Source of the DNA: a virus
DNA length: 64,000 nucleotides
Reading direction: 5' to 3' (one strand)
Virus record (IMG/VR): IMGVR_UViG_3300023184_000083
Coordinates: 13,725 to 77,724 of that record
Shown here piece after piece: positions 39,677 through 44,641 of this stretch (positions within the stretch are counted from its first letter, which is position 1; the number at the start of each line of letters is the position of its first letter). The notes under the pieces were generated by a model. That model was not told the origin of the DNA, ran no database searches, and saw only the letters and a list, made by a program, of their open reading frames with translations. The translations under genes and the position numbers were made by a program.

Positions 39677-42600
39677 TCAAGAACCTCTGAGGTTTTTTCC
39701 CATTGTACGAGGCTTTCTCTTTGTAGATTCTTTATCGCTTCTACTACGCCCGATGACTGTTCTTTTATTCTTTTTTGCTTGCGAACGATTGCTAATACCG
39801 TTAATACCGGCGTCAGAATAACGGCGACTACCGTTACTAGTCTCTTGTGAACGTGCATACCTCTCACGGCTCCATCTCTTAATTGACCTATTGGTAGAGC
39901 GTAGTGTGCCACGGAAGCCTCCACCAGCATCCTTATACATCTTGATAAGTATCTGTTGTTTGCGCGCTGTCCACTCGCCGGCCTTGCCACCATCTTCACC
40001 TTTGAGAATGTTCTTTCTCATCTCTTTCCATAGTTCAGGAGAGTCTTGTTCTAGTGACTTCTGTTGTGGGGCGTTGTCTAAGAAACTCTTAGTAACAACA
40101 GCAACCCATGGGAGGGTCTTTGTATCAGGCTGTTTTATTGGTTTTCCTCTGACGTATCCTACGAACGAGGAGTGTGCCTTGCGTGTCTTCGTGATGTTGT
40201 TGTCTATGAGCGAATGTATATACGCAGTCGCTCTCGTTTTAGGGGGTTCTTGAAGTAGGGATTTGTTTTGAACAGGGCTATAAGTGTCAGGGTTATCCAG
40301 TTGTAGGATTTGCCTCATTGTTTCCACGTCTATGGTCATGTTGTCAGATGCTTTATGTATTTTTTCCAACAGTCTTAAAGCCTCTTTTGCTGTTGAGATT
40401 CCTCGCTTCTCATCAGCCTCTTCCCAAGTCCTAAGTTGCATTATCATGATTCTACGAAATAAATCAAAAGGAAGAGCGTCCTTATATTCAGGATTGTCTG
40501 CATAAATGTTTTGACTCGTATGAACCATTGCTAAAAAGTTTGCCCACTCTCCGTGTCTGTCAAACCCACGACCCGTTCCAAGATGACCAATAATGTCATG
40601 CATGACCTGTATATAGGAACCCTGGTCTTGCTCCTGAATCATCATCGCATCGGATGGAACCCTTAAGAACCTCTCGTACAGGGTGTCAAATGAGTCCATA
40701 GAGCCTCCTGGGGTGTACTCTGCGCCAAGAGATTCACGCAAGTTGTTATATGCGCTACGAGAGATTAATAAGGAATCAGCGGCGTCACTTAGTTTTTCTC
40801 CGAATGTTTCGGAATAATCCGTGTATCCCAGTCCGGGTGTTGGCTCTCTCAAGTTGTCTAGAATGGATTGATACATTCTGATTCTTGCTTCAGAAGATGG
40901 AATTCTCACATGAGAGAAGTCTCCATCAAAGCCAATAATCTTTTGAAATTCTGGAACCGGTGGAGCAATCATGGTGAATATGCCATCCGGTGATGGCTCT
41001 ATGCGAATCTGGTTAACAAGTTCTCTTATTCTTTCTTCTGTCCACATGCCTTGTGGTGTTACGTTTCTATTGCGCATGCGACTGAATAGTTCAGGGTCTC
41101 CGCCTGCCAACTTAAATATGACTTCAGGTATTTTTTCGGGAGCCAAATCATACAGAGATGGGTCTTTTACTAGAGCGTCAATTACTTCTATTGCTGCTTG
41201 TTGAGAGGCAAGACCATGCGTGTGTATGGCGTCCTGTTTAGCAACTGCTTGTACGTCTGTCCTAGTTGCACCATTTAATGGTTTACCTGAACGCAATCCA
41301 CTAATTGGTGAACCATCATTGTTAAGTACCTGTGTTCTGTCGGAGTCGTCAAGCATGTCAATGACAGTTTGAATGTCACCCGTGTATCCATAAATCCAGT
41401 TGTTCCACTGTCCTCCATCCATGTCTTCATCGTATTTATCACCGAAACCAGTGCCATAAGTTTGTTCAATACGTGACATCGCAAATCTAGTAAGCACGCT
41501 TCTCTTAACGGCTTCTTTTTCGTCAGGGGTGAAGTCGTCAAATATTGGATTATCAAGCATTGTAATTACTGCTAATGGGTTAGCCCATTCGCCATGTCTA
41601 TCAAACCCTCTACCAATACCCGCATGACCAAAAGCATCATGTACGCCTGATTCCACACTGCCGGAACCATCAGCGAAGGAACTTCTGATAGGGTTAGACA
41701 AGCCTGATAGGTAGAGACTCAACCAACCAGAGCCCACCGAATCACCGATATCTTCTTTTGGTGCACCTTCTGTTAGTGATTCAACTAGTCCTATTAATCT
41801 GTTGCTGAATCTTTCTTCTAGGCGCTCATAGTTTCTGCCGAAGAGACTCTGCCTAGTATCCTCATCATTAAAAATTGCTTCGGATTGGTTTTCTTTTATG
41901 TGTTTTGCTGCTGCTTTGACTGTCGCACGCTTAGGTACCCGTACCTTAGACCAGTCTCGTTTGTCTGGAATGAATTGAAACATGAGTGGGTTCGGGTCCG
42001 CCATCATCATTGGGATGCCATCATCATCAACTTCAACACGAATGGAATCCAATAGACGCTTCTTGAATTGTTCTATTGCTGAATGTATTGGTCTCTTTGC
42101 TAGTTCTCCACTAGTCACTTCATCCATACGTTGAGTAAGTTCGTCCTCTGCTATGGATACTTCTTTATCTGATAGTTCTAATTCTTTTGATATCTGACCA
42201 AAGTCTTTACCCATGATGGTTGCTGAACGAGAGGCAAGACCACTTACGTTGCGTTCCCATGGTTTATCAGGAGTGCCACCGGTACTGGTGTGTTTGCCTC
42301 TGGTCTCACCCGTGACTGTTATGCCTGACAAACGAGCAAGAGTGCTCCTAAAAGCGTCACTAACAAGCATGTTGTTTACGTTTGCGTGAGGTGAAGTAAC
42401 AGCAGCAAAGCCTTCTGCAAATGTCTCCTGTGGGTCTGACAATGCATAACCCGAAAAGACAACTGGATAACCTTGACCAGCAAGGTCAAAGAAATGAAAC
42501 GGGTCAAAGTGTTTGTTTTCTACTAACCTGCCTCTTGTCACGCTGTCATACATGGAAGAAATAGGCTTACTTACTAATGGGTCACCAAGAGCCCACCCTT

Positions 42601-44641: not shown

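Follow-up and report, generated by a model that had tools for sequence, protein, structure and literature searches.

The window analyzed here is a 64,000-nucleotide stretch of phage DNA comprising bases 13725-77724 of the 77,724-bp virus record IMGVR_UViG_3300023184_000083 (CheckV completeness about 49%), a record that encodes a major capsid protein of the HK97 fold, tail genes, a primase/helicase and a ribonucleotide reductase. At its center stands an open reading frame (ORF) for a protein of 1654 amino acids (aa), hereafter called P0001, whose gene starts 11.1 kb from the major capsid gene. P0001 consists of an N-terminal leader that carries a conserved sequence tag, two zincin modules resembling the catalytic domain of anthrax lethal factor (LF) in their predicted fold, two mutually related modules with an HDxxGH signature, and a very basic C-terminal tail (Table 1). 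The tetrapeptide GL[RA]S occurs five times along this chain, at the borders of the modules. As judged from these sequence features, P0001 is probably loaded into the phage capsid and cut into separate proteins. A tblastn search with P0001 against 50,697 records of cultured phages yielded no match.

A first-pass annotation of this DNA had described P0001 as a string of duplicated modules punctuated by GL[RA]S, and the positions of all five tetrapeptides could be verified. The amino acid composition of P0001 predicts about 0.74 GLxS tetrapeptides, while five are present; among 20000 shuffled versions of the protein, at least five GLxS were found in 30 and at least five GL[RA]S in none. The codons differ among the five sites, and the serine is written AGC as well as TCN; hence, it is the peptide rather than the DNA that is under selection. 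Two AlphaFold models were used to locate the sites relative to the folded parts of the protein, one of aa 1-820 (mean predicted local distance difference test score [pLDDT] 68.6) and one of aa 791-1141 (mean pLDDT 63.7). The first contains two folded parts (aa 90-378 and 440-778), with the pLDDT dropping below 50 at aa 1-89, 379-438 and 798-820, and the second comprises a helical core (about aa 840-1055) with low-confidence ends. The sites at residues 79, 395, 801 and 1115 lie within linkers of pLDDT <50 between the folded parts, and the site at residue 1143 is positioned two residues beyond the end of the second model. Homologues of 63% and 36% identity retain the sites at equivalent positions, with variable flanking residues. 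Both the coincidence of domain boundaries with GLxS and the conservation of the tetrapeptide in homologues, on which the first-pass annotation had made its proposal depend, were thus borne out.

Table 1. Positions of the features of P0001, of the head operon and its surroundings, and of corresponding genes in relatives. Positions refer to the window unless a relative is named.
Feature	Position	Strand	Details	Evidence
Gene for P0001, candidate polyvalent cargo polyprotein	39677-44641	-	1654 aa	ORF translation
Leader	44408-44641	-	aa 1-78; predicted disordered, pLDDT <50	AlphaFold model
Putative address tag	44429-44506	-	FDPKAFDGDGDGLVQDASEFERPSVP, aa 46-71; also present in the 580-aa and 1074-aa proteins of the head operon and in the S78-protease-anchored protein of relatives	
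Site 1	44396-44407	-	GLRS, aa 79-82; 11 residues behind the tag	Motif search
Module 1, zincin	43460-44395	-	aa 83-394; folded 90-378	Alignment, model, fold match
HEFGH of module 1	43862-43876	-	aa 256-260, with Glu343 and Glu347	Alignment
Site 2	43448-43459	-	GLRS, aa 395-398; in a 60-residue low-confidence linker (aa 379-438)	Motif and model
Module 2, zincin paralogous to module 1	42242-43447	-	aa 399-800; folded 440-778	blastp, alignment, model
HEYGH of module 2	42719-42733	-	aa 637-641, with Glu739 and Glu743	Alignment
Site 3	42230-42241	-	GLAS, aa 801-804; downstream module swapped exactly here in homologues	Homologue comparison
Module 3	41300-42229	-	aa 805-1114; mainly helical; HDAFGH...GRGFDRHGEWAN at aa 1001-1021	Model, alignment
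Site 4	41288-41299	-	GLRS, aa 1115-1118	Motif search
Site 4 plus basic spacer peptide ending at site 5	41216-41299	-	28 residues	Sequence
Site 5	41204-41215	-	GLAS, aa 1143-1146	Motif search
Module 4, paralogous to module 3	40442-41203	-	aa 1147 to about 1400	blastp
HDIIGH of module 4	40583-40600	-	aa 1348-1353	Alignment
Stretch without G[LFM]xS	40061-40441	-	aa 1401-1527	Motif search
Very basic C-terminal tail	39680-40060	-	aa 1528-1654; pI 11.2	Composition, homology to P0014 C-terminus
Class II (B12-type) ribonucleotide reductase gene	50296-52227	+		
DUF6321 protein	53101-53976	-	291 aa	
Major capsid protein	55720-57030	-	HK97 fold; N-terminal region without G[LFM]xS	
580-aa head-operon protein	57175-58917	-	DUF3721	
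Its tag	58174-58251	-	aa 223-248	
Its site	57976-57987	-	GLKS, just before the Zeta_toxin-like domain	
1074-aa head-operon protein	59305-62529	-		
Its tag	61717-61794	-	aa 246-271	
Its sites	61204-61215 and 61129-61140	-	GLGS and GLAS; double site 61129-61215	
ORF open at the contig end	62526-63998	-	G002 homologue 673 aa	
G002, tape-measure-position protein L023	10811-15487	-	GFAS twice, plus GLAS at aa 42	
G002, L026	76219-76851	+	Separate 210-aa ORF of the DUF5872-like basic tail	
G007, tape-measure-position protein	89119-93672		GLAS three times vs. 0.053 expected	
G008, tape-measure-position protein	79817-84163		GMSS and GMRS	

The modular nature of these proteins becomes apparent when homologues are compared. 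We split 36 of them at GLxS and clustered the resulting pieces at a reciprocal coverage of at least 60%. The pieces fall into families that recur in different orders (e.g., B-A-A-C-J-H; B-A-A-H; B-A-A-A-N-G-C-U; A-…-C-…-G-G-X), with two or three zincin copies as the constant first modules. One and the same module stands behind GLAS at aa 801 in the homologue P0004 and at aa 1102 in P0002, and the modules are combined in varying order with NUDIX, HTH, Zeta, DUF3721 and other domains. The ends of BLAST alignments are 2.3-fold enriched at a distance of no more than five residues from a site, a supportive but noisy signal. The C-terminus of module 2 (KPWERN) is conserved just before site 3. Pairs of sites 19-30 residues apart, with a variable sequence in between, are common in the homologues and are represented in P0001 by the sites at residues 1115 and 1143; in each of the two double sites of the window, the members lie 25-28 residues apart. 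While the zincin and HDxxGH modules of P0001 are separated by site-bearing linkers, no GLxS-type site precedes the basic tail.

The first-pass annotation had recognized an explicit recurring linker within a polyvalent-type protein, and such a linker is indeed present, although its code is wider than stated. In a set of 59 long homologues, GLxS, GFxS and GMxS were enriched 3.1-fold, 3.2-fold and 2.4-fold, respectively, and no enrichment was found for GIxS, GVxS, GAxS, [AS][LF]xS or G[LF]x[TAG]. The code is G-[L/F/M]-x-S (with flanks approximately [RS]-G-[LFM]-[ASR]-S-[GRS]-[ST]), and each phage lineage uses its own version of it. The dominant form is GLAS in P0039 (10 copies) and GLSS in P0045 (seven copies); among the related genomes it is GF[SA]S in G002, GLAS in G007 and GMRS in G008, where 15 copies are present among the 25 sites of a single 3661-aa protein.

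Modules 1 (aa 79-394) and 2 (aa 395-800) are paralogous zincins, as had been proposed from their shared DFSP, FGxPP, HE[FY]GH and ExFAEG elements, all of which were found; in a blastp comparison they align with an E-value of 3e-10 (22% over 339 aa). Each contains an HExxH motif and a downstream Glu as third ligand, the arrangement that defines gluzincins, and the corresponding residues (H256/E257/H260 with E343/E347 in module 1; H637/E638/H641 with E739/E743 in module 2) are invariant or nearly so in alignments of homologues. Foldseek ranked the LF catalytic domain at the top, with a weak E-value of 0.18. In VIA comparisons, both modules matched LF residues 564-775 with Z-scores of 9.4-10.4 and a root-mean-square deviation of about 4 Å over 165-175 residues, followed by Pro-Pro endopeptidases (Z 7-7.7) and a Bacteroides Peptidase_Mx structure (Z 6.4). 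Pfam scores stayed below threshold throughout (Peptidase_Mx, 15.8 bits with a cutoff of 27; Peptidase_Mx1, 14.1 bits with a cutoff of 25.6). Since Pfam gives sub-threshold hits only and the likeness resides at the level of the fold, we classify the modeled domains as LF-like zincins and not as members of the M34 family. With the M34 enzymes (anthrax LF, PPEP-1/Zmp1; MEROPS) they share the HExxH motif and the Glu in an E-x-F-A-E helix, but the sequence identity amounts to 10-18%, there is no Pfam M34 hit, and the substrate-docking domain of LF and its domain for binding of protective antigen are missing. Moreover, the modules studied here are embedded in a phage polyprotein, and nothing points to a role as an animal toxin. 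Proteolytic activity of both modules is predicted from their catalytic residues and modeled fold.

Modules 3 (aa 801-1114) and 4 (aa 1143 to about 1400) are likewise paralogous (blastp E 7e-19; 29% over 214 aa) and have the motif HDxxGHxGxGRGFDRHGEWAN in common, in agreement with the first-pass annotation. Its further remark that HDxxGH stands in place of HExxH is no indication of a zincin variant, as no relation to zincins was detectable: an hhalign comparison of the zincin and HDxxGH alignments gave a probability of 0.3%, and we therefore dropped the notion of a degenerate zincin. No identity could be assigned by Pfam or by sequence profiles of the PDB (best E 1.5). The module 3 model gave a best E-value of 0.22 with Foldseek and a best Z-score of 3.4 in a wide VIA search, at a model confidence (pLDDT 63.7) that still leaves room for a known fold; the ESM Atlas provided no usable match. 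Among 1.84 billion representatives, 63 proteins with a domain of the module 3 type were found, most of these domains being located inside giant proteins of 1,100-3,700 residues. In the alignment, H, D, H, R, D, R, H and E are invariant, which suggests a metal-dependent active site.

The C-terminal 127 residues of P0001 (aa 1528-1654) contain 27% Lys plus Arg, which confers an isoelectric point (pI) of 11.2. This tail had been annotated as a basic DUF5872-like domain. Its basic character is evident, but the connection to DUF5872 is an indirect one: homology (E 1.5e-22) connects the tail with the C-terminal part of P0014, a protein bearing a precomputed PF19197/DUF5872 label, and Pfam scans of the tail alone and of the whole of P0001 gave no DUF5872 (PF19197) hit at E≤1. 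The tail also matches phrog_17747 and recurs as a conserved C-terminal module in many homologues. In G002, the DUF5872-like tail is encoded by a separate ORF (L026) that overlaps the end of a 3212-aa polyvalent ORF by 10 nucleotides, an arrangement that may reflect a programmed frameshift or the splitting of a gene. DUF6321 is found together with DUF5872 and an HDxxGH module in the short homologue P0072; the free-standing DUF6321 protein encoded in the window may, from this association, be another cargo module.

The leader of P0001 contains a tag with the pattern FDPxAxDGDGDGxVQDxxxFERP, located 11-13 residues ahead of the first site. The first-pass annotation had noted that the gene carries the same tag as the head operon 11 kb away, and this proved to be correct: residues 33-76 of P0001 match aa 216-276 of a 1074-aa (E 2e-9) and aa 204-248 of a 580-aa head-operon protein (E 9e-8). 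The three tagged proteins of the genome together contain eight GLxS (1.3 expected), in comparison with six (7.0 expected) in the other 95 ORFs, and GLxS was the top de novo motif in the tagged set combined with a 447-aa ORF of the head operon. Among 82 proteins of the family, 29 possess the tag, and the next site follows 11-13 residues downstream in 19 of 31 cases. The leader, with its conserved tag and a site at this fixed spacing behind it, would serve in targeting. The 580-aa protein combines DUF3721, the tag and a Zeta_toxin-like P-loop kinase domain; its homologues of about 2800 aa add pentapeptide repeats. We considered whether the 580-aa or the 1074-aa protein might be a head protease of the type present in the Gordonia phage ChisanaKitsune, and found no similarity. 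A GLQR sequence in the capsid protein was rejected as a variant site, as it is not conserved in G002. Between the head operon and the gene for P0001, the opposite strand carries the ribonucleotide reductase gene; in G002, an opposite-strand ORF of similar size is present in the corresponding gap.

Since the ORF at the edge of the window is open at its end, the contig breaks inside a head-operon gene, and the record lacks the portal, the S78 polyprotein and tail genes such as that for the tape measure; searches of the contig for the S78 and S77 families gave no match. We therefore resorted to G002 (118 kb, about 79% complete), whose capsid protein is 77% identical, as a stand-in for the head module. 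There, the portal gene is followed by a gene for a 2290-aa protein, by genes for several further giant proteins, by those for counterparts of the 1074-aa and 580-aa proteins, which bear tag and sites, and by the capsid gene. The 2290-aa protein contains a Peptidase_S78 prohead protease domain at aa 23-169 (E 3e-11), the tag at aa 468 and 10 G[LFM]xS sites, and no zincin was detected in it. Ten kb beyond the capsid gene, G002 encodes a P0001 homologue of 3212 aa, which bears the tag at aa 53 and comprises three zincins and one HDxxGH module, with a total of 11 sites. The region combining S78 domain and tag has 334 relatives in IMG/VR, and hence the phenomenon belongs to a large group of uncultured phages; a 48% similarity of the capsid protein to those of Gordonia and Brevibacterium phages hints at actinobacterial hosts. 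Most of the 26 relatives of the S78 region whose ORFs were examined bear the code of their lineage, with up to 25 sites per protein. Two S78-anchored giants, L086/G010 (3894 aa) and L085 (2757 aa), both of them open-ended, contain no G[LFM]xS and presumably use another linker code.

In three relatives (G002, G007 and G008), the protein encoded at the tape-measure position (i.e., behind sheath, tube and chaperone) bears the code of its own lineage in a Gly-rich middle part; in the G002 protein, GFASRTGAGGGG is repeated in tandem. The N-terminal region of the capsid protein, in contrast, is free of G[LFM]xS both in this phage and in G002, and its aligned boundary reads K-G or K-S. Zincin modules and S78 domains co-occur in every fairly complete relative examined, including G007, G008 and G010, so that genomics alone cannot decide between the two enzymes.

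We tentatively favor a reading in which P0001 is a capsid-addressed polyvalent cargo polyprotein with a built-in processing signal that is cut, most likely, by its own zincins. The tag in the disordered leader would dock P0001 into the assembling head. The chain of two LF-like zincins, two enzyme-like HDxxGH modules and the basic tail would then be severed at the G-L-x-S tetrapeptides into free modules, which would reach the host together with the DNA; the double sites would, in addition, release short basic spacer peptides. All ejected proteins bearing the code would be substrates of the zincins, in cis as well as in trans, be it in the filled particle or once delivery has taken place, and our guess for the scissile bond is Gly-Leu, with Leu, Phe or Met occupying the S1' pocket. 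The best fold matches of the zincins, LF and the Pro-Pro endopeptidases, are sequence-specific enzymes that cut extended peptides, and each zincin of P0001 is flanked by sites. We prefer the zincins over a head protease because the tape measures carry the lineage code and the N-terminal region of the capsid protein does not; a coded tail protein is out of reach for an enzyme confined to the head.

Several points weigh against this assignment. Site 1 is located only 11 residues behind the tag, and the tag would be lost ahead of loading if the zincins were already at work in the producing cell; their activity would thus need to be slow or regulated. Cutting in trans would be needed for the site carriers that have no zincin, namely the S78-anchored polyprotein of the relatives and the 1074-aa and 580-aa proteins. 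To our knowledge, processing of a polyvalent protein by a zincin has been predicted but never demonstrated. The co-occurrence of zincins and S78 in all fairly complete relatives cannot distinguish the two enzymes, the evidence on tape measure and S78 stems from relatives while this contig (about 49% complete) holds neither gene, and the quality of the AlphaFold models is moderate (mean pLDDT 64 and 69). Moreover, where motif-directed processing of head-internal proteins is documented, it is the work of a prohead protease, as in the case of SPN3US gp245, which trims packaged ejection proteins by cutting off their propeptides at a specific motif (PMC10052503).

Following this precedent, the same cargo polyprotein might be cut in the procapsid by an HK97-type (S78) prohead protease, in the manner of T4, phiKZ and SPN3US, with the zincins as delivered effectors; we regard this as unlikely, albeit as a serious contender. 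The cut would then likely fall between x and Ser of G-L-x-S, with Ser at P1'. Enzymes of this kind cut between Lys and Ser in HK97 and between Ala and Ser in the case of the herpesvirus assemblin. The S78 domain of G002 is fused to a tagged protein with 10 sites in which no zincin was detected, the numerous relatives of this region mostly carry the lineage code, and confinement to the head would fix the timing, with cutting only after loading. However, the N-terminal region of the capsid protein has K-G or K-S at the boundary in place of the code, the tape-measure-position protein of three relatives, which is assembled in the tail and not in the head, is coded, and this contig, which breaks within the head operon, contains no S78 gene. 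That head and tail proteins are both coded would also fit an enzyme not confined to the head, such as a host protease or a further phage protease that is neither zincin nor S78. Staphylococcal phage 80alpha, for instance, has its capsid and scaffold proteins trimmed by a host protease. We nevertheless consider such an enzyme most improbable, since the code differs between closely related lineages with similar capsids, which is easier to understand with a co-inherited phage enzyme, and two suitable phage proteases are already present.

It is also conceivable, though we think it improbable, that GLxS is not cut at all and serves as a linker element of an intact giant protein, either as a peptide that docks to the capsid interior, to the portal or to a chaperone, reminiscent of the cargo-loading peptides of encapsulins, or as a hinge needed for threading of the chain through the tail. 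The location of the motif, always in disordered linkers, would suit a short binding motif as well, some tag-bearing relatives (e.g., P0028) are free of sites, and uncut delivery is known for the virion RNA polymerase of N4 and for some polyvalent proteins of plasmids (PMC5512222). Site pairs 19-30 residues apart with a variable interior are, however, more typical of cleavage spacers, and a first site fixed 11-13 residues behind the tag resembles a removable leader. All sites shift in concert from lineage to lineage (GLAS, GFSS, GMRS), as if the substrates tracked the pocket of one enzyme, and a tape measure would need no peptide for docking to the capsid. We give hardly any credence to the view that the motif arose by chance or from the composition of Gly/Ser-rich linkers, or that it marks a recombination joint at the DNA level. 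The flanks of the linkers are somewhat polar (68% vs. a background of 61%), but the neighboring patterns G[LF]xT/A/G, [AS][LF]xS and G[IVA]xS are not enriched, the motif is retained at 36% identity, no shuffled version of P0001 reached its GL[RA]S count, and the sites differ in their codons, with both serine codon families in use; the enrichment and codon tests contradict both variants of this view. A small part of our confidence stays unassigned to any of these readings.

A likeness of P0001 to the metallopeptidase-rich polyvalent proteins of phages and plasmids had been pointed out by the first-pass annotation, and the match of both zincins to the LF catalytic domain and the varying module composition of the homologues support it. 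The metallopeptidases (MPTases) of polyvalent proteins have been tied to anthrax LF, and processing by them as well as delivery together with the DNA have been predicted (Iyer et al., 2017; PMC5512222). P0001 is phage-encoded, and like these proteins it is a giant chain of unrelated enzyme-like domains with a hub of LF-related zincins in several copies and with a variable architecture; its delivery with the virion is a candidate property, suggested by the tag that it shares with head-operon and S78 proteins. It differs in its linkers, which bear a G[LFM]xS code that co-varies with the lineage and is also present in other head proteins and in the tape measure of relatives, and in its conserved N-terminal tag, held in common with the prohead-protease-anchored protein. 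No cleavage motif is named for the polyvalent proteins, and their assemblin-like peptidases are C-terminal (PMC5512222), whereas the S78 domain is N-terminal in the relatives studied here; the HDxxGH module has no Pfam match and is thus not placed among the families in Pfam. In the internal proteins (IPs) and Alt of T4, which possess a capsid targeting sequence, and in the packaged proteins of phiKZ and SPN3US (PMC10052503; PMC5694885), a targeting or propeptide region stands at the N-terminus and a cleavage motif comes next, a layout that P0001 would share; one motif is common to several packaged proteins, and the cargo is ejected into the host. Their motif, in contrast, ends in Glu, is served by an S77- or S80-type protease, and is also present in capsid or scaffold proteins; G[LFM]xS is absent from the capsid protein, occurs in the tape measure of relatives, and divides the chain into many modules instead of setting off a single propeptide. 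The polyproteins of picornaviruses (3C) and retroviruses (Gag-Pol) are likewise chains of units with a repeated short site, site-flanked proteases and spacers between double sites, but this likeness is one of logic only, as there is no homology between these RNA viruses and retroviruses and the cargo of a dsDNA tailed phage. Neither in Iyer et al. (2017) nor in full-text searches on the topic did we find a report of an explicit linker code that co-varies with the lineage, of a fixed leader of tag and first site in common with a prohead-protease fusion, or of such a code in a tape measure; these three features are our candidates for novelty.

In its widest form, our proposal is that a large group of uncultured tailed phages of about 150 kb uses a true polyprotein strategy, in which the tag would load giant chains of exchangeable effector modules into the head, the concerted G[LFM]xS code would mark all proteins released from the virion, the tape measure among them, and co-delivered LF-like zincins would release the modules, possibly only after ejection, with the HDxxGH modules as a new enzyme family; we hold this possible, but rather doubtful in its entirety. 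Polyvalent proteins are regarded as the first weapons that a phage delivers. A short and countable linker code would make the predicted processing by zincins simple to test, would allow thousands of giant uncharacterized phage proteins to be split automatically into functional units, and would help to recognize the ejected proteins of the virion. Foreign proteins could be directed into phage heads with the address tag as a portable signal, and the co-variation of the code with the lineage would offer a natural system in which to study the co-evolution of a protease and its substrates.

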